A stretch of DNA of 64,000 nucleotides from an uncultured Opitutaceae bacterium. GTDB taxonomy: Bacteria > Verrucomicrobiota > Verrucomicrobiia > Opitutales > Opitutaceae. Of this stretch, positions 5,840 to 47,648 are shown in pieces. A model generated the notes under the pieces. The model saw only the letters and a program-made list of their open reading frames with translations. It was not told the origin of the DNA and did no database searches. Numbering within the stretch: the stretch's first letter is position 1; each line of letters starts with the position of its first letter. Where the stretch lies: positions 10,539 through 74,538 of the forward strand of contig CAIYUN010000041.1 of assembly GCA_903929355.1 (NCBI GenBank). Direction: 5' to 3'. The position numbers were made by a program, and so were the translations under genes.

Positions 5840-7528
5840 ATGAACCGCCGCGATTCCGCTTCATCTTGGTGGCGCGACCTCGCGCTGCTCGCCCTCGCGC
5901 TCGGCGTCCTCTATGGCTTCCGCCTGGGCAGCTACCCGTTCAGCAACCCCGACGAGGGTCGCTATGCCGAAATCCCCCGCGAGATGCTCGCGACGGGCGA
6001 TTGGATCACCCCGCGGCTCGACGGGGTGAATTATTTTGAGAAGCCGCCGCTGGTCTATTGGGTGACGGCGGTGAGCGAGGAGCTCTTCGGCCAGAACGAG
6101 TGGGCGGTGCGGGCGGTGCCGGTGCTGTTCGCCATGGCGGGCGTCCTGCTGACCTATGCGGCCGCCCGGCGGCTCCACGGCCGCCCGGCGGGCCTGGTGG
6201 CGGCCATCGTGCTTGGTACTTCCGTGCTGTGGTTTGTCATCGGGCATATTCCCCTTCTCGACATGGCGGTGTCGGTGTTCATGTCCGCGACCCTGTTTTG
6301 CTTCATCCTCGGCATGCGCGAGCCGCCGGGCGCCCTCCGGCGCCGGCTGTTTTACGGCCTCTATGCCAGCGCGGCGCTGGCGACCCTGACCAAGGGCCTG
6401 ATGGGGTTCCTTGTGACCGGCGCGGTGATGTTCACCTGGCTGCTGGTCTTCAACCAATGGAAACGCCTGCGCCCGCTGCACCTGCCGACAGGGATCATGT
6501 TGTTCCTGGCCATCGCCCTGCCGTGGCACCTGCTCGTCTCCGCACGCAACCCCACCTGGTTTCATCGTTACATCATCTACGAGCACTACCTGCGGTTCAC
6601 CACCGCAACCGTGACCGGCCATCTGGAACCGTGGTGGTACTTCCTCCCGATCGTGTTGCTCGGGCTGTTTCCGTGGACGGGGTTGCTTTGGCCGGCCGGG
6701 CGCGAGGCGCTGCGCGGCGGCTGGGCGCGCCGGCAGGACAATGCGGACGTGTGGTTCTTCGTGGTCTGGGCGGGTTTCATCCTCCTGTTTTTCTCCGCCT
6801 CGCACTCGAAGCTAGCCCCCTACATCCTGCCAGTCTTTCCGGCGCTCGCCGTGCTGCTCGGCACGGGGGTGGCGAAAACCTTTGACGGGGTGGACGCCGC
6901 AAAGCGCCTGCGGGCCGGTTGGCGGACCTTCTCCTTCCTTTGCGGGCTGCTGGTGGTGGCGGTCGGCGTGATCATGGCGCGGCCCGATTTGGTCAAGATG
7001 GATCCGGCGCAGGCGCTCGCCCTCCAGCCGCCCGCGTTCACGATAGGGGTGATTCTGATGCTCGGCGGCATCCTGGCGCCATGGCTGGCGCGGACCCGCG
7101 GGGCCCGTGCCGCGCTCGCCGGGATGGGGGCGACGATGGCGCTGTTTTATGTCACGCTGCAGTTCGCCGCGCCCGACATCCAGAAAACCGGCACCAAGCC
7201 GCTCGCACTCTATGTGCGGGCCCACGCCCAACCCGGGGACCAGGTGGTGCACTACCTGGATTTTTTCCATGACTTCACCTTTTACGCCGGCCGCACGGTG
7301 GAGGTCGTGGACGGCAAGGGCGAGTTGGAGCTGGAGGAGGATGCCGCCGCGCGGGCCGGCGGCCGGTTCATGGACGTATCAGCCTTTCGGCGTCTTTGGG
7401 TGCAACCCGGCCGGGTTTATGCGGTCGGACGCAAGCGGGATGCGGGGCCGCTTTTTGCCGACCCGACCTTTCAATATCATTTGCTCGCCGAGACCGCGGA
7501 CCATTACCTTTTCAGCAACCAACCGTGA
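5840..7528 (+). CDS. arnT: ArnT-like GT-C glycosyltransferase (4-amino-4-deoxy-L-arabinose transferase family, PMT_2)
   Basis: 562-aa polytopic ORF. N-terminal SNPDEGRYAEIPREMLATGDWITPRLDGVNYFEKPPLVYW is collinear with E. coli ArnT (PDETRYAEISREMLASGDW...YFEKP). Confidence 0.85.
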   Translation: MNRRDSASSWWRDLALLALALGVLYGFRLGSYPFSNPDEGRYAEIPREMLATGDWITPRLDGVNYFEKPPLVYWVTAVSEELFGQNEWAVRAVPVLFAMAGVLLTYAAARRLHGRPAGLVAAIVLGTSVLWFVIGHIPLLDMAVSVFMSATLFCFILGMREPPGALRRRLFYGLYASAALATLTKGLMGFLVTGAVMFTWLLVFNQWKRLRPLHLPTGIMLFLAIALPWHLLVSARNPTWFHRYIIYEHYLRFTTATVTGHLEPWWYFLPIVLLGLFPWTGLLWPAGREALRGGWARRQDNADVWFFVVWAGFILLFFSASHSKLAPYILPVFPALAVLLGTGVAKTFDGVDAAKRLRAGWRTFSFLCGLLVVAVGVIMARPDLVKMDPAQALALQPPAFTIGVILMLGGILAPWLARTRGARAALAGMGATMALFYVTLQFAAPDIQKTGTKPLALYVRAHAQPGDQVVHYLDFFHDFTFYAGRTVEVVDGKGELELEEDAAARAGGRFMDVSAFRRLWVQPGRVYAVGRKRDAGPLFADPTFQYHLLAETADHYLFSNQP

Positions 7529-11757: not shown

Positions 11758-11930
11758 GTGTGCCACAGAGTCCACGGAGGGCAGACCGGGAGTTCACGGA
11801 GAAAACGCCCGGGGACCAATCTGGGAGAGAAGCAACCATCGCCCTTCGTACTGACTACCTTCTGACTTGTTTCAGACGGTCTTTCTCTGTGAACTCCGCC
11901 TTGGTCTCTGTGTTCTCTGTGTCCCATTTC
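11758..11930. repeat. MITE-like element with ~47-nt terminal inverted repeats built of CACAGAG/CACGGAG words
   Basis: Left arm GTGCCACAGAGTCCACGGAGGGCAGACCGGGAGTTCACGGAGAAAAC. The reverse complement of the right arm is GGGACACAGAGAACACAGAGACCAAGGCGGAGTTCACAGAGAAAG. Lies between convergent AKR and moeA. Confidence 0.75.
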
Positions 11931-17526: not shown

Positions 17527-17701
17527 TTAACCTCGGATAACACGGATGAACCCGGATCCGGCGATTAACTGGGTTGCTTCCGAGGGTAGGGCGTGACCAA
17601 CGCCGGGCGCGCCGTCTGGGAGGTTTGGTTGCCCTGGCCCAAATTCAGGTCGGACGAGCCATCGGCATTGTCCGTGTCCATCCGCGTTATCCGTGGTTAA
17701 A
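17527..17701. repeat. MITE-like element with CACGGAT-word inverted arms around a GAGGGTAGGGC-type REP
   Basis: Left arm TTAACCTCGGATAACACGGATGAACCCGGATCC; right arm TGTCCGTGTCCATCCGCGTTATCCGTGGTTAAA. The interior is similar to 5041..5100. Confidence 0.6.
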
Positions 17702-17794
17702 TTTCTGCCTCCCGCCATCAATCCGTGGTTGGCTCCGTGACCTCCCGGTCTGATCCTCTGTGCCCTCTGTGCCCCACTCCGGTTGTCCGCCCGC

Positions 17795-30357: not shown

Positions 30358-30712
30358 GGACACTGAGGGCACAGTGCCCGGCAGGAGGGCACGGAGAAAA
30401 CCATTTGAACCTCAGTCTGGATTCGGACGTCGGATATCACCACAAATCACATAGATATACACGGATACAGAGTGATACGGAATATGATCCAAGTCGTATC
30501 TGACGCCCATAGGGTGAAAGTTTAAGGATTTGCCAGGGATTGGTTATCCGTGCCCATCCGTGTAATCCGTGGTTTCAAATGAGTTTTTCAGGCTCAGTGG
30601 ACTGCGACTGAGATGACCTAGCCTGTGCGAGGTGACATCAACCTCAGACTAAACTTCAAGATATTCTCTGTGAACTCGGTTTGGGTCTCTGTGGCCTCTG
30701 TGTCCCATTCCG
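30358..30712. repeat. MITE-like element of the same family as 11758..11930, with nested CACGGAT-word arms
   Basis: The right arm TTCTCTGTGAACTCGGTTTGGGTCTCTGTGGCCTCTGTGTCCCATTCC is near-identical to 11884..11930. The left arm is GGACACTGAGGGCACAGTGCCCGGCAGGAGGGCACGGAGAAAACC. The low-GC interior has inverted CACGGAT/ATCCGTG blocks at ~30468 and ~30545. Confidence 0.7.
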
Positions 30713-37214: not shown

Positions 37215-37546
37215 TTTAACCACGGATTGCACGGATCGTCACGGATGGGACAAATCGGAGAAGAAGTTGTAACACGGAGGACGCGGAGCACACGGAGGGG
37301 CGAGGGAGCGATGACCAAGGCCCAGAGATTGGGCCGGCCTGAGTTCCTGAATTCCAGATTTGATTAATTTGGAAATCAGGAAATCAGGAACGGGACGAAG
37401 TTATAACCACGGATTACACGGATGATCACGGATCCAGAAAATTAAAATTCGCCAGACTTCCGCGTCCATCCCCGGTTACGCTGCATCGGGGCTGGATGCA
37501 GGAGTTTGACCGAAATCCAAAATCGAAATTCCCCAATCCAAAATCC
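37215..37546. repeat. mosaic of five word-repeat blocks (CACGGAT, CACGGAG, AATCAGG, CACGGAT, CCAAAAT)
   Basis: Blocks at 37215..37250, 37268..37298, 37344..37392, 37400..37435 and 37510..37546, read directly from the sequence. Confidence 0.8.
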
Positions 37547-38609
37547 TCAGAGCAGGCCCTTCTTCACCTTGGCGGCGAGCAGGCGCTCCAACTCCTTGCG
37601 GAGCGCCTTTTCCTTGCCGCGCAGGCCGGGCATGAGCGCGAGCCAGTTGTAGATTTCCTCCCGCAGATGGCGGGGCATGGCCGGCTCCTCGGCGATCACC
37701 TTGTCGAGCGCACGCACCACGGCCGTCGCCACCTGGTCGCACAACACGGCGGCGGTGGCGGAGGCGTGCTGGCCGGCCAGGCGTACCACCTCGTCGAGTG
37801 CGGCCCGGCGGCCGCGGGCGCGGCGGCGCTGGAGCGCGCGATAGGCGTGCAGGCTGTCCAGCCCGAGCGTGACCGTGCGCGGGAAAAAGTCCGTCAGCCG
37901 GCCGCGCGGCGCCCGCCGGGGGCCCGATCCCGTCGCGGCGTCGCAGAGGACGACCGCAGGCAGGTCGGCAAACTTGGCAAACATGAAATCCGCCGCCGTC
38001 CCGTCGTCCGGCCCGGCATCGTCGAGACAGAACAGGCCCGCGTCGCATTCCAGCAGCGTCCGCAGATGGTGGTCGCGGACGAGCCGCGGGTGCCGACCCC
38101 GCGGCGCGAAGTCCTGGGGCAGGCGGCAGAGGTATTTGCCGTGGGACTTCTCGTACACCGCCTCGGCCAGGCCGGCGTGCCCGAGCAGGCGCGCGAAGCC
38201 GGCGCGCTCTCCCGCGAAATAGACCGGGTGGCTGGTTTTCTTTTTCACGACAGATCGACGATGGCGGTGGCCGGGCGCGGCTCAACGAGAAACCGCCGTG
38301 GCCGCAGAATGGGTGCACCACCACGTTGTGTCCAAGATTCTGTCGTTGTGCACCGAGACCACTGCGGTAAATCCAAGGGTCGAGAGCAATCCATCGGAAG
38401 GAGCGGAGCGGTTGTTTTCAGCTGCCGGATGCGGGTGCTGCAACCAAACTGAATTCTTTAAGTGATTAGCTCCGTGTGCGCTCTGGCTGTGTGTTCGGTG
38501 CAATCAATCTGCGCATTTTTGTTCTGTATCCGGGTCCATCCGTGGTTCATCCGTGGTTCATCCGTGGTTAAAAACTACTTCCCCTCCGTACCTGATTTCC
38601 TGATTTCCC
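37371..38609. mobile_element. 1.24-kb cassette bounded by ~70-nt composite inverted repeats, carrying the NDT-like gene
   Basis: Left arm GGAAATCAGGAAATCAGGAACGGGACGAAGTTATAACCACGGATTACACGGATGATCACGGATCC (37371..37435). The reverse complement of the right arm (38533..38609) is GGAAATCAGGAAATCAGGTACGGAGGGGAAGTAGTTTTTAACCACGGATGAACCACGGATGAACCACGGATGG. Confidence 0.55.
37547..38248 (-). CDS. nucleoside 2-deoxyribosyltransferase-like protein
   Basis: 233-aa ORF. N-terminal VYFAGE and later DDGTAADFMFAKFADLPAVVL resemble the NDT/PF05014 pattern. Sits inside a TIR-bounded cassette. Confidence 0.5.
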   Translation of the reverse strand: MKKKTSHPVYFAGERAGFARLLGHAGLAEAVYEKSHGKYLCRLPQDFAPRGRHPRLVRDHHLRTLLECDAGLFCLDDAGPDDGTAADFMFAKFADLPAVVLCDAATGSGPRRAPRGRLTDFFPRTVTLGLDSLHAYRALQRRRARGRRAALDEVVRLAGQHASATAAVLCDQVATAVVRALDKVIAEEPAMPRHLREEIYNWLALMPGLRGKEKALRKELERLLAAKVKKGLL

Positions 38610-38617
38610 TATAAAAT

Positions 38618-43900: not shown

Positions 43901-44773
43901 CTACCCTTTCACCGCGCCGGCGGTCACGCCCCGGACGAGATGCCCTTGCAGCGCGACGTAAACGATGAGGATCGGCAGCGTCACCAGTACCAGCCCGGCG
44001 AAGAGCATCCCCTGGCTGGCGTGGTATTGCGCGGTGATGGCGAGGTTGGCCAGCCCGAGAGGCAGCGTGCGCGCCGTGCCGGCGGGGTCGCCGCCCACCA
44101 GCATGAAGGCGAAAAAATACTCCTTCCACACCCCGATGAACTGGAACACCCCTACCGTCACCAGACCCGGCCGCGCGAGCGGGAGCATCACCCGCCAGAA
44201 CGCCCCCGCCTCGGTGCAGCCGTCCACCACTGCGGCCTCGTAGAGGGAGCGGGGGAGCGTCTTGAAAAACCCCGCGAGGATGAAGATGGCAAAAGGCAGG
44301 CCGTTGGCGGTGTAGACCAGGATGAGGCCCATCCGTGAGTTGAGCAGACCCAGTGCGCGCAGCTCGAAGAACAGCGGCACCATCGCCAACTGGGCCGGGA
44401 GCATGAGTCCCGCGAGGAACAGCCAGAACACCGCCCGCCCGAGCGGATGCGCAAACCGCGCCAGCGCATAGGCCGCCATCGCCCCGAGCAGCACGATCAG
44501 GCCGACCGAGACCGTGGTCACAAGCACGCTGTTGAGAAAATAGTCGCCGAAACCGGCCTCATGCCACGCCCGGGCGTAGTTCTCCGGGTGCAGCGCCCCC
44601 GCCGTCGGCAGCGCGAAGGCGTCGGTGAAAATCGCCTGGTCCGACTTGAGCGAGGAATATGCCACCCAGACCATGGGAAACACGACCCACAACCCGTAAG
44701 CGGCGAGCGTGGAAAGGAGCAAGGCGCGGGAGACGGTAAATTTGTTTTTTAACACGGAGGGCACGGAGAGCAC
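43901..44773 (-). CDS. carbohydrate ABC transporter permease (MalG-like)
   Basis: EAA-loop region LYEAAVVDGCTEAGAFWRVMLPLARPG; 6 TM. The first ~10 codons are encoded by the CACGGAG repeat, so the real start is uncertain. Confidence 0.85.
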   Translation of the reverse strand: MLSVPSVLKNKFTVSRALLLSTLAAYGLWVVFPMVWVAYSSLKSDQAIFTDAFALPTAGALHPENYARAWHEAGFGDYFLNSVLVTTVSVGLIVLLGAMAAYALARFAHPLGRAVFWLFLAGLMLPAQLAMVPLFFELRALGLLNSRMGLILVYTANGLPFAIFILAGFFKTLPRSLYEAAVVDGCTEAGAFWRVMLPLARPGLVTVGVFQFIGVWKEYFFAFMLVGGDPAGTARTLPLGLANLAITAQYHASQGMLFAGLVLVTLPILIVYVALQGHLVRGVTAGAVKG

Positions 44774-45204
44774 GGAGTGAGAGAGTGAGGGCCGTTGACC
44801 ACGCGGCGCACGCCATCGGTCAGTTTGGACACATGAAAGTTGATCAGCAGGCCCACGGGTTTGGCGGCCAGCCGCAGATAGGAGAGAAGTTGGGCCTCGT
44901 GGATGGGATCCAACCGGCTCACCGCCTTCAGTTCGACGATGACCGTATCTCCGACCAGCAAGTCGAGGCGATAGCCCTCGTCGAGCTGCAGGCCGCGATA
45001 GGTCACAGGCAGAAGCTTTTGCCTTTCAACCGTGAGTCCGCCGTCTGCCAGCTCATAGGCCATGCATGCCTCGTAGGCCGACTCGAGCAGCCCCGGCCCC
45101 AGCTCCCGGTGCACCCGGATGGCCGCGCCAATAATCCTCTCCGTCAGCTCGTTTGGTTGCATCATGATTTTCTCCGTGTTGTCCGTGCTCTCCGTGTTAA
45201 AAAT
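44745..45204. mobile_element. 460-bp cassette bounded by ~36-nt inverted repeats, carrying the GxxExxY gene inside an ABC transporter operon
   Basis: Left arm TTTTTTAACACGGAGGGCACGGAGAGCACGGAG (44745..). The reverse complement of the right arm is GATTTTTAACACGGAGAGCACGGACAACACGGAGAA (..45204). It fills exactly the gap between the upstream stop (45204) and the downstream permease start. Confidence 0.6.
44749..45165 (-). CDS. GxxExxY protein (PD-(D/E)XK-like small protein family)
   Basis: ORF 44749..45390(-), Met-Met at 45165. NELTERIIGAAIRVHRELGPGLLESAYEACMAYEL...VIVELKAV...HEAQLLSYL contains the eponymous G-LL-E-SA-Y motif. Confidence 0.8.
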   Translation of the reverse strand: MMQPNELTERIIGAAIRVHRELGPGLLESAYEACMAYELADGGLTVERQKLLPVTYRGLQLDEGYRLDLLVGDTVIVELKAVSRLDPIHEAQLLSYLRLAAKPVGLLINFHVSKLTDGVRRVVNGPHSLTPCSPCPPC

Positions 45205-47648
45205 CAGCGTTCCACCGTCTCCCGGCGGAGGGCGCGCATCACCGCGGCGCTGCCGGCGAGCACGAGGACGAACATCACGACCGCGATCGCGGTCGCCCGG
45301 CCGATTTGGAAATCCTGGAACATGGTCGAGACCATCAGCGTGCCGAGCGTGTGTGTGCCGCTGGCCGGGGCCTGGTTGGTGAGCAGCCACACCAGCTCGA
45401 AGGCATTTAGCCCCCCGATCACCAGAAACACCGCCGACACCACCAGCACCTCGCGGATGAGCGGCAGCGTGATCGTGAAAAACTGCCTCACCTTTGACGC
45501 CCCTTCCAGCTCCGCCGCCTCATACAGCTCCATCGGGATACCCTGCATCGCCGCGAGATAAAGCACCAGATTGAAGCCGCACGCCATCCACAGGTAGATG
45601 GGGATGAGCGCGGGGTAAAGATGGGCCTGAGCCAGCCAGGGGTAACCATCGAAGGAGCGAAACCACGCGACCCAAGCCGCCGGCGCGTGCGTCGCGGCCA
45701 GCAGACCGCCGAACTTCACCAAGGCCGCGTTCACCAGCCCGGAGTGCGGATTGTAGGCGTTGAGCCAGAGCAGGGCGGCCGCCACGCCACCGAGCAGGTT
45801 GGGAAACAGCAGCACCATCTGGAAAACCTTGGCTCCCCGCCCGCCGCGATGGATGAACGCCGCCAGCAGCAGGGCCGCCGGCACCACCACCAGCGCGGGT
45901 ACCACCATGAGGAAGAGATTGTTGCCCAGCGCGGACCAAAACGTGTCGCTCTCCAGCAGCAGCCACTTGAAATTGAACCACCCCGCCCAGGTCCGCGCGC
46001 TGATCCCATCCCAGCGCGTGAACGCCCACGCCAGCGCCGCCAGGCCGGGCAGCAGCACGAGCGCGCCATAGAGCAGCAGCGCCGGGCCGACAAAGCCCAT
46101 CGCGAAGCGGCCCCGCAGCGGGCCCAGGTGGGCCGCGTTGCCTTCGGCAACGCGGGTGAATGCGGATTGCGGATTGCGGATTGCGGATTGGGCGGAAGCT
46201 GCGGCGCCGCTGGGAGCGCGACCGCCTGTTTTCTCCCGCCACCATCCCCACCCCAACCACCCCGCCACGCCGGCGAGCACGAGCAGCAGCACCCCGGCCG
46301 GGAGACCGTGACGCACTTCGACGCGGTCCGGATCGGTCGCCCGGGCGCGGTCGGTCGCCGCCGCCTGCTCCAAGCGGGCCGCAAACTCGTCCGGGGTGAT
46401 GCGGCCGGTGGTGAGCTGCTGGCTCGCGTCAATGAGCGCCTGCCGGAGGGCCGGCGGCTGAAGCATGGTCTGGGGCATGTTGAAGGCCGCCTTGGCCTGA
46501 GCGATCAATGCGGCGGTATCCTGCATCAAGGGGGAAAAGGCCGACTCCGGCACGCCCCGGATCGCGACGGGCGCGTCGGCGCTCCGGACAAATGCCTCCG
46601 CCCGCGCCCGGGAGGTGAGGAAGCGGAGGAAATCCACCGTCAGCCGCTCGCGGGCGGCGTCACCGGTGGCGAAGACAAAGAAGCAGTCGCTCCCCGTCTG
46701 AATGGTCGTGGGATCGGCCGCGCCGTCGGCAAAAACCGGAAAATTCATCGCGCCCAGCTCAAAACCGGCGGGGATCTTGCCGCGCATCTCGTTGACGAAC
46801 CAGGAGCCGGAGACGGTCATGGCCGCCCGCCCGGCGAGGAACGCCTGTTCCGCGCCGGTGTGCGACTCGCCCTCCCAGCCCGGCGCGGTCTCCTCCCGGG
46901 TCACGCGCTGGAGCAATGCGGCGGCGCGCACCGAGCGCGGGTCGAGCCGGGCGCCCACTGCGGCCGGATCGTCGAGCGCACGCCAGGCGTCGTCGCCGAG
47001 GAGGTTGTGGCTGGCGGCCCGCCGGAAAGCGTCGGCGTAAAGCCAGCTCTGGCCGGGGAGACTGAGGGGAGTCAGGCCGGCGGCACGGATCTTGGCGCCA
47101 AGGACGAAAAACTCATCCCAGGTTTTGGGCACCGACCAGCCATGGGCGCGAAAGAGCGCCTTGTCGTAGAAAATAGTCCAGCAGGCCGAGGCGAACGGCA
47201 CCCCATAGACGCGGCCGCCAACCCGCCAGGAGTCGAGCGCACCCGGCAGATAGGTCGTGTCCCAACGGGCGTCGCCGTCCCAGTTCTGACCGGCGAGCGC
47301 GGGGTTGAGGTCGAGCACCTTGCCCGCCGCGATCAGCACAGGCCAGGGCAGCTCGGAGGTGAGGGTGGCGTCGGGCAGGTGGCCGTCCATGACGCGGACG
47401 CGCACCTGGTCGGCGATGCGCGGGTCGCCGTGGAGGTTGATCCGCACGCCCGGCCGCAGCGCCTCAAACTGCCGCGCCGTCTCCACATAAAAGGCGGTGC
47501 CGTAGCCGCCGTCGAAAACCGGGATGTCGAGAGTGACCTCGGCTGCGCGGGCCGGGAGTCCGGGCAGGGCGCCGCCAGCCATCACCGCCGCCAGCACGAG
47601 CCGGCGGAGGCGGGGAGTGGACGGTAGAAGTCGAAGGTCGAACGTCAA
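45204..47648 (-). CDS. fused sugar ABC substrate-binding protein / TM anchor / MalF-like permease
   Basis: Single 814-aa ORF. It has a signal peptide plus a family-1 SBP (~aa 1-450), one TM helix (VLLLVLAGVAGWLGWGWW), a linker encoded by (GCGGATT)4, then a 6-TM permease with the EAA loop LYEAAELEGASKVRQFFTITLPL. Confidence 0.75.
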   Translation of the reverse strand: MTFDLRLLPSTPRLRRLVLAAVMAGGALPGLPARAAEVTLDIPVFDGGYGTAFYVETARQFEALRPGVRINLHGDPRIADQVRVRVMDGHLPDATLTSELPWPVLIAAGKVLDLNPALAGQNWDGDARWDTTYLPGALDSWRVGGRVYGVPFASACWTIFYDKALFRAHGWSVPKTWDEFFVLGAKIRAAGLTPLSLPGQSWLYADAFRRAASHNLLGDDAWRALDDPAAVGARLDPRSVRAAALLQRVTREETAPGWEGESHTGAEQAFLAGRAAMTVSGSWFVNEMRGKIPAGFELGAMNFPVFADGAADPTTIQTGSDCFFVFATGDAARERLTVDFLRFLTSRARAEAFVRSADAPVAIRGVPESAFSPLMQDTAALIAQAKAAFNMPQTMLQPPALRQALIDASQQLTTGRITPDEFAARLEQAAATDRARATDPDRVEVRHGLPAGVLLLVLAGVAGWLGWGWWREKTGGRAPSGAAASAQSAIRNPQSAFTRVAEGNAAHLGPLRGRFAMGFVGPALLLYGALVLLPGLAALAWAFTRWDGISARTWAGWFNFKWLLLESDTFWSALGNNLFLMVVPALVVVPAALLLAAFIHRGGRGAKVFQMVLLFPNLLGGVAAALLWLNAYNPHSGLVNAALVKFGGLLAATHAPAAWVAWFRSFDGYPWLAQAHLYPALIPIYLWMACGFNLVLYLAAMQGIPMELYEAAELEGASKVRQFFTITLPLIREVLVVSAVFLVIGGLNAFELVWLLTNQAPASGTHTLGTLMVSTMFQDFQIGRATAIAVVMFVLVLAGSAAVMRALRRETVER
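46162..46189. repeat. (GCGGATT)x4 heptanucleotide tandem repeat inside a coding region
   Basis: GCGGATTGCGGATTGCGGATTGCGGATT. It encodes ...SAIRNPQSA... in the linker of the SBP-permease fusion ORF. Confidence 0.9.

Follow-up and report, generated by a model that had tools for sequence, protein, structure and literature searches.

In the REPIN-RAYT systems, short palindromic repeats (repetitive extragenic palindromic, or REP, hairpins tagged GTAG or CGTC; PMC3733652) are dispersed between genes, mostly as gene-free hairpin doublets (REPINs), and are accompanied by REP-associated tyrosine transposases (RAYTs), single-copy IS200-like Y1 HUH tyrosine transposases with long vertical inheritance and purifying selection on the protein (PMC3116915; 10.1101/2021.07.10.451892). 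Correia elements, the MITEs (miniature inverted-repeat transposable elements) of Neisseria, hold no gene, end in unique 26-bp terminal inverted repeats (TIRs) and duplicate a TA target; they are co-transcribed with their neighbours, and within operon transcripts their arm hairpin is bound and cut by RNase III, a substrate property that alters flanking-gene expression (PMC2649163). The intervening sequences (IVSs) of 23S rRNA in Coxiella and Leptospira, located in helix 25 or 45, are units of ~430 nt in which terminal inverted repeats surround an open reading frame (ORF) of ~125 aa, sense to a highly expressed transcript; the ORF encodes the four-helix bundle S23p (PF05635), and in Coxiella it is preceded by three contiguous tandem heptamers (GACAGAT, period 7), RNase III cutting the terminal inverted repeats at the first of these (PMC4990558). 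Homing endonuclease genes, in their free-standing or intron-less form, lie precisely between host genes, have empty alleles in relatives and target one long specific site. Here we describe a cassette that resembles each of these systems in part and belongs to none of the IVS, REP/RAYT and classical MITE classes: a GxxExxY minigene between inverted arms of heptamer arrays, inserted at the junction of two ATP-binding cassette (ABC) permease genes of an uncultured Opitutaceae bacterium. The stretch analysed, referred to as the window, comprises 64,000 nt (contig CAIYUN010000041.1 of assembly GCA_903929355.1, positions 10,539 to 74,538).

The cassette lies on the minus strand, as do its neighbours, between an upstream gene for a fusion of a solute-binding protein (SBP) and an ABC permease (45204-47648; Pfam SBP_bac_1 and BPD_transp_1) and a downstream gene for a MalG-like ABC permease (43901-44773; Pfam BPD_transp_1). 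The gap between these two genes is wholly taken up by the GxxExxY ORF (44749-45165; 138 codons and a stop) and its arms, in agreement with the original prediction made from the letters of the window, the inverted arms measuring 35 nt each (44743-44777 and 45172-45206), being 89% complementary and leaving 394 nt between them. Each arm consists of a TTTTTAA end and three heptamers at a 9-nt period, the unit being CACGGAG and, in one case, CACGGAC. The upstream (5') arm, 45172-45206, reads TGA-TTTTTAA-CACGGAG-AG-CACGGAC-AA-CACGGAG and is kept in the orthologous loci L003, L006 and L007, and the downstream (3') arm, 44743-44777, reads CTCCGTG-CT-CTCCGTG-CC-CTCCGTG-TTAAAAAACA.

By its sequence, the element is fitted to the operon through its arms. 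The stop codon TGA of the SBP-permease gene (45204-45206) lies inside the 5' arm, the last heptamer of which is separated from the GxxExxY ATG by AAAATC, placing its GGAG 6 nt before that ATG. At the other end, the 3' arm encodes the last ~10 codons of the minigene (...LTPCSPCPPC*) with its TAA stop, and the longest MalG-like permease ORF begins within the same arm, at GTG 44773 (MLSVPSV...), so that the predicted contribution of the arms to the end of the one protein and the beginning of the other was borne out. The 3' arm holds three GTG codons, all in the permease frame because the 9-nt period is a multiple of three, and the last of these (44755-44753) overlaps the minigene stop as GTGTTAA; on this arrangement, the permease probably starts at one of the arm GTGs (44755, 44764 or 44773). 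A scan of the cassette for promoters and terminators gave nothing above chance, and the GxxExxY gene is promoter-less. With the arms supplying the stop and the GGAG and GTG starts, translation could pass from gene to gene in a relay, from the upstream stop to GGAG and the nuclease ATG and from there, by way of the GTGTTAA overlap, to the permease.

GxxExxY proteins belong to the PD-(D/E)XK nuclease family and not to S23p. The window ORF matches PF13366 (PDDEXK_3) with an E-value of 8e-43 and 145.9 bits (cut-off 22), this being its sole Pfam match, and TIGR04256 (GxxExxY) with an E-value of 1e-44 and 151.5 bits (cut-off 35). In an alignment of 20 diverse homologs, residues E28, E32, D68, E78 and K80 are invariant, the PD-(D/E)XK signature being a helix Glu, an Asp and Glu-x-Lys, and the AlphaFold2 model (pLDDT 84.6) is alpha/beta with the order H-H-E-E-E-H-E. 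A four-helix-bundle identity of GxxExxY, from which the likeness to 23S IVSs had originally been drawn, was rejected on the strength of the PF13366 and TIGR04256 profiles and the mixed alpha/beta model. What is known of IVSs is therefore not directly applicable here: although unit size, terminal inverted repeats around a small ORF and sense orientation are alike, the host is an mRNA operon and not 23S rRNA, the ORF is of the PD-(D/E)XK type, the heptamers are spaced rather than contiguous, and none of about 215 fetched loci, when searched with probes for conserved rRNA segments, has a cassette beside rRNA. A PDB sequence search with the window protein returned nothing relevant and the fold search no informative close relative. 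The family is very large, with 23,765 representatives at 50% identity (E-value up to 1e-3), its function is given as unknown in the one classification paper retrieved (PMC3424549), and viral contigs hardly ever carry it (1 locus in 2.9 million). The top-scoring family representatives (P0361-P0373) are 260-295 aa long and contain two GxxExxY domains. Such two-domain proteins probably represent tandem cassettes that are translated as a single ORF, since arrays of 9-nt period often lack a stop codon.

Comparison with relatives identifies both empty and filled forms of the operon. In Rariglobus hedericola the junction between the permease genes is TGAacgcATG, without cassette; in two Opitutaceae metagenome-assembled genomes (MAGs) the genes overlap as ATGA, likewise without cassette (together the empty sites L211, L212 and L215). 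Two closer relatives, with MalG identities of 86% and 83%, lack the cassette too, their permease genes lying 7 nt apart in one case and overlapping by 4 nt in the other. The closest GxxExxY homologs, at 84-88% protein identity, are all found in the identical operon slot of related MAGs with the arms present, so that orthologs carry the gene together with its repeats. All filled permeases have in common an N-terminus of derived type (M-L-K/T-N-...) that begins at the arm GTG, and empty ones begin MK(I/A)... from an ATG; as read from these termini, the ancestral ATG of the MalG-like permease is lost in the filled form. The cassette is thus a real insertion, made at an overlapping stop/start junction in an ancestor of this Opitutaceae lineage and passed on vertically from then on. 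For pairs of filled orthologs, GxxExxY has a synonymous divergence (dS) of 0.75-1.85, no lower than that of MalG for the same pairs (0.63-1.09), and a ratio of nonsynonymous to synonymous divergence (dN/dS) of 0.06-0.11, while in the aligned arms the heptamers are ~95% intact and spacers and flanks drift. The cassette is therefore older than the species splits, and both its protein and its arms are constrained. Despite this age, GC content at third codon positions in the GxxExxY ORF (44779-45165) is 0.775, compared with 0.86-0.87 in the flanking permease genes.

In the MalG tree filled and empty operons are interleaved. The MalG nearest to that of filled locus L006 belongs to locus L216, in which an array of another, reverse type (CTTTGTG..CTTCGTGG; CTTTGTGggCTTTTGTGccTCTTCGTGG) at positions 30-80 precedes an ATG-initiated MalG by 10 nt, the contig ending 78 nt upstream. 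It seems to be a separate, independent element at that junction. Taken together, the interleaved tree and the L216 array suggest that the junction was hit more than once or that losses occurred, and a one-time gain in the ancestor of the filled clade was not confirmed, given the interleaving and the different array type. Filled locus L003 has, at 6400-6565, the GxxExxY gene followed by an extra forward array (AACACGGAGAGCACGGAG), a ~100-nt spacer and then the reverse arm, so that a further empty hairpin lies nested at the cassette's 3' end.

The architecture extends far beyond Opitutaceae. A GxxExxY profile scan of species-representative genomes yielded 80 loci from Acidobacteriota, Bacteroidota, Verrucomicrobiota, Planctomycetota, Chloroflexota, Proteobacteria, Cyanobacteria and Chlamydiota as well as from archaea. 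An array is present on at least one side of the gene at 77 of these 80 loci, the canonical layout, in which a forward array lies upstream and the reverse complement of this array downstream, at 56, and a flanking inverted repeat is significant (z of 4 or more) at 57 of 78. The unit varies by locus (CACAGAG, CGCAGAG, CGCGGAG, CGCCGAG, CACGAAG, CGCAAAG, CACAAAG and others), typical elements ending in TTCACC.../...GGTGAA, and the two arms of a locus carry the identical unit in 23 of 39 cases, compared with permuted pairings that averaged 4.7 and reached at most 11. Co-variation between protein sequence and heptamer type would be expected from common descent of whole cassettes alone. The cassettes usually occupy tight junctions of same-strand genes: at canonical loci a same-strand gene ends within 45 nt before the 5' arm in 30 of 43 cases and another starts in the 3' arm or within 45 nt after it in 33 of 43, both together applying to 27 of 43 canonical loci versus 5 of 84 control positions. 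The N- and C-terminal tails predicted for many database homologs, such as NTEDTENTEK, HGVHGEHG, PPCTQRPPC and QRTQRAQR, are translated arms. The window cassette is a textbook example of this family architecture. An unusual arrangement was observed at L038 (225-1640, on a Propionicimonas MAG contig), where eight forward arrays in direct orientation, ~120-140 nt apart, surround the GxxExxY gene, unlike the usual inverted pairs.

Arrays also occur, and mostly so, without a gene. In the window, CACGGAGnnCACGGAG with up to 2 mismatches is found 17 times, against an expectation of 1.22, and none of 100 shuffles attained 17. These 64 kb contain at least 14 arrays, which fall into three related kinds (CACGGAT, CACAGAG and CACGGAG) and are nearly all intergenic at gene ends, with several forming gene-free inverted pairs; the arms are thus not confined to the cassette, whereas such confinement would have spoken against the mobile-cassette proposal. 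When metagenomes were scanned without bias for three CACGGAG units (CACGGAGnnCACGGAGnnCACGGAG), the first 80 loci gave 91 distinct arrays, 45 of them with a reverse array within 150 nt. Four arrays have loops of 331-480 nt, and GxxExxY, encoded by three of the four, is the only cargo found in such loops. No second recurrent cargo, for instance a four-helix bundle, was detected beside the arrays, other ORFs being host genes or translated arrays, and at locus L093 an empty hairpin and a filled cassette have a common extended terminus. Gene-free hairpins of the same element kind are thus shown to be scattered through the source genome and many bacterial phyla.

Set against the described systems, the features shared with REPIN-RAYT are dispersed intergenic short palindromic repeats that are mostly gene-free, a small nuclease gene that itself lies between inverted repeats, and long vertical inheritance with purifying selection on the protein. 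The enzyme, however, is PD-(D/E)XK rather than a Y1 HUH transposase, the repeats are 7-nt units at a 9-nt period rather than tagged REP hairpins, and the gene is located inside operons, in many phyla and likely with many paralogs per genome. With Correia elements the cassette has in common that it is bounded by inverted repeats and co-transcribed with its neighbours, but its arms are heptamer arrays, its nuclease cargo is conserved and no target duplication is seen. Similar to homing endonuclease genes, a nuclease gene is placed precisely between host genes with empty alleles in relatives, and self-propagation is plausible; in contrast to this cassette, homing endonucleases have neither multi-copy subterminal repeat arrays nor gene-free derivatives, and the GxxExxY family, for its part, is nearly absent from phage contigs. 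Terminal inverted repeats are present as in MITEs and TIR transposons, but the cargo, a PD-(D/E)XK protein, represents none of the known transposase families (DDE, HUH, serine or tyrosine), nor was a transposase observed beside the cassettes. Heptamer arrays around GxxExxY are not described in the literature that was searched, and the repeat-plus-nuclease element is apparently undescribed, the protein family itself being already catalogued.

From these observations, we consider it somewhat more probable than its competitors combined (roughly 0.55) that the window cassette represents, in its gene-bearing form, a palindromic repeat family of the REPIN/MITE-like kind and that the nuclease is the element's own enzyme. 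In such an element, the nuclease would have the heptamer arrays, or a hairpin or cruciform arising from them, as its recognition or cleavage target and would thereby maintain or spread the repeats, possibly by a route in which break repair turns empty hairpins into filled ones. The logic would be analogous to that of RAYT transposases and their REPINs. By analogy with the Coxiella IVS and with Correia elements, the predicted arm stem in the mRNA could also be an RNase III site, or it could keep the permease start hidden unless the upstream gene is being translated; these effects on the RNA would then be a by-product through which the insertion becomes tolerable.

Several observations count against this reading. 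Foldseek retrieved PD-(D/E)XK nucleases only, all of them weak matches (best E-value 6e-3, TM-score 0.47) and comprising Cas4, lambda-exonuclease relatives, Bax1, Hjc and restriction enzymes, and action of the nuclease on the arrays is inferred from association alone. Of the earlier proposal that this is a MITE-like mobile cassette, insertion, empty sites and a dispersed family of arms were upheld, but there is no known transposase, and comparison of filled with empty sites reveals no target-site duplication at the element's boundaries. A second copy of the cassette was not found either, in searches that did not extend to the whole source genome, the exact protein occurring only here and its closest homologs being orthologs, so that recent transposition is not demonstrated. 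Furthermore, three array types share the 64 kb with but one GxxExxY gene, and arrays in the window surround an ordinary host gene and therefore exist independently of the nuclease gene. Finally, 24 of the 80 loci have non-canonical layouts, for example reverse-gene-reverse or reverse-gene-forward.

More tentatively, and with the odds somewhat against so broad a statement, GxxExxY proteins may be the dedicated nucleases of an unrecognised pan-prokaryotic group of selfish or domesticated heptamer-array hairpins, a PD-(D/E)XK counterpart of REPIN-RAYT, filled copies carrying the nuclease and empty ones being non-autonomous derivatives. These elements would home into tight operon junctions, where the arms would provide the signals for stop, ribosome binding and start, and probably a long-range stem in the mRNA, leaving the host operon unbroken. 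The association by itself ties GxxExxY/PDDEXK_3, a very large family of unknown function, across phyla to a repeat architecture, to gene-free hairpins and to insertion at operon junctions, and the family thereby gains a concrete and testable role as a repeat-element nuclease. In practical terms, the arms are a common source of mis-annotated protein tails (TEDTENTE, HGEHGEHG, SVPSVLSV) and of wrong starts of neighbouring genes. If the arms indeed act in mRNA as well, elements would have in them a general means of residing in an operon while leaving it intact.

Among the alternatives, the one that survives best, though we judge it unlikely, holds that the arrays are host REP-like repeats, serving, for example, host-protein binding, mRNA-end stabilisation or termination, that the nuclease is an unrelated cellular enzyme of repair or defence, and that the cassette was moved by recombination between repeats. 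The arrays are indeed mostly gene-free and at gene ends, those in the window enclose a nucleoside 2-deoxyribosyltransferase-like gene, the cassette behaves like a host gene in its vertical inheritance and purifying selection, viral contigs are almost devoid of the family, and the window protein has weak similarity to Cas4, also returned by PADLOC as a weak match. The association is, however, too specific and too regular for such a model, GxxExxY being the sole recurrent cargo, the polarity of the gene relative to the arms being fixed at the 56 canonical loci across phyla and archaea, and the two arms of one locus co-varying; nor does the host-repeat model predict a gene in a hairpin loop that splits tight operon junctions.

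Doubtful as well, and ranked next, is an element that acts at the RNA level, its arms pairing in the polycistronic mRNA as an imperfect stem of ~35 bp to form an RNase III cleavage site or a long-range switch that links translation of the two permease cistrons, with the nuclease gene as a passenger in the loop. Pairing of the arms in the operon mRNA is predicted, as anticipated by the original prediction: in a 491-nt transcript both the minimum-free-energy and the centroid fold pair the arms (ΔG -212.7 kcal/mol, z -4.7, with none of 100 shuffles equally stable). The cassette is also oriented with the operon, here and at most loci, and both the heptamer-bearing Coxiella IVS and the Correia elements set a precedent for RNase III processing of such repeats. 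Against this stand the mismatches between arms, which over 2456 aligned positions at 64 loci comprise 102 G:T and T:G pairs versus 90 A:C and C:A pairs; wobble-compatible mismatches being no commoner than the others, RNA pairing on the sense strand is not visibly selected. Orthologs keep the heptamer sequence itself, with no compensatory change and with 2-nt spacers that are often mismatched, reverse-gene-reverse layouts cannot hold the gene in a stem, an Rfam scan of 44000-46000 at E-values up to 1 gave 0 matches, and a passenger role leaves the strong purifying selection on the protein unexplained. The missing wobble signal, the conserved heptamers and the non-enclosing layouts are the reasons for ranking first a sequence-specific role of the arrays at the DNA level. 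Chance similarity or an assembly artefact can be dismissed, as the same cassette is present in independent assemblies, several samples and related species and the repeats are far above chance.

With the gene-bearing form of a palindromic repeat family thus retained as the preferred reading of the cassette, the remaining arrays of the window can be described. Three forward arrays lie on the plus strand at 37221-37433, namely CACGGAT x3, a CACGGAG-type array x3 (37273-37297) and again CACGGAT x3, the last of which (37408-37433) pairs with a reverse CACGGAT array on the minus strand (38538-38566) across a host gene. Both belong to a composite inverted repeat (37364-37439 and 38522-38615), in which an outer 30-nt pair of GGAAATCA repeats brackets inner CACGGAT arrays. 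The gene enclosed, of 233 aa (37547-38248, minus strand), is nucleoside 2-deoxyribosyltransferase-like and conserved in Opitutaceae, and its ORF was rejected as a second cassette on the grounds that it is an ordinary host gene of this family of bacteria. An empty element at 11764-11921 (no strand assigned, as for the following two) consists of inverted CACAGAG/CACGGAG arrays without an ORF between convergent genes. At 17530-17775 an empty CACGGAT hairpin (17530-17700) is followed by a CACAGAG/CACGGAG reverse array (17721-17771), and the same composite, with a degenerate CACGGAT hairpin and a CACAGAG reverse array, recurs at 30450-30706. Both composites lie between convergent genes and have the order CACGGAT hairpin (~100-nt loop), then CTCTGTG..(13 nt)..CTCTGTGnnCTCTGTGTCCC. 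The CACAGAG type has a fixed spacing of 2 units, a 13-nt gap and 1 unit, which is also found in the element at 11764-11921.

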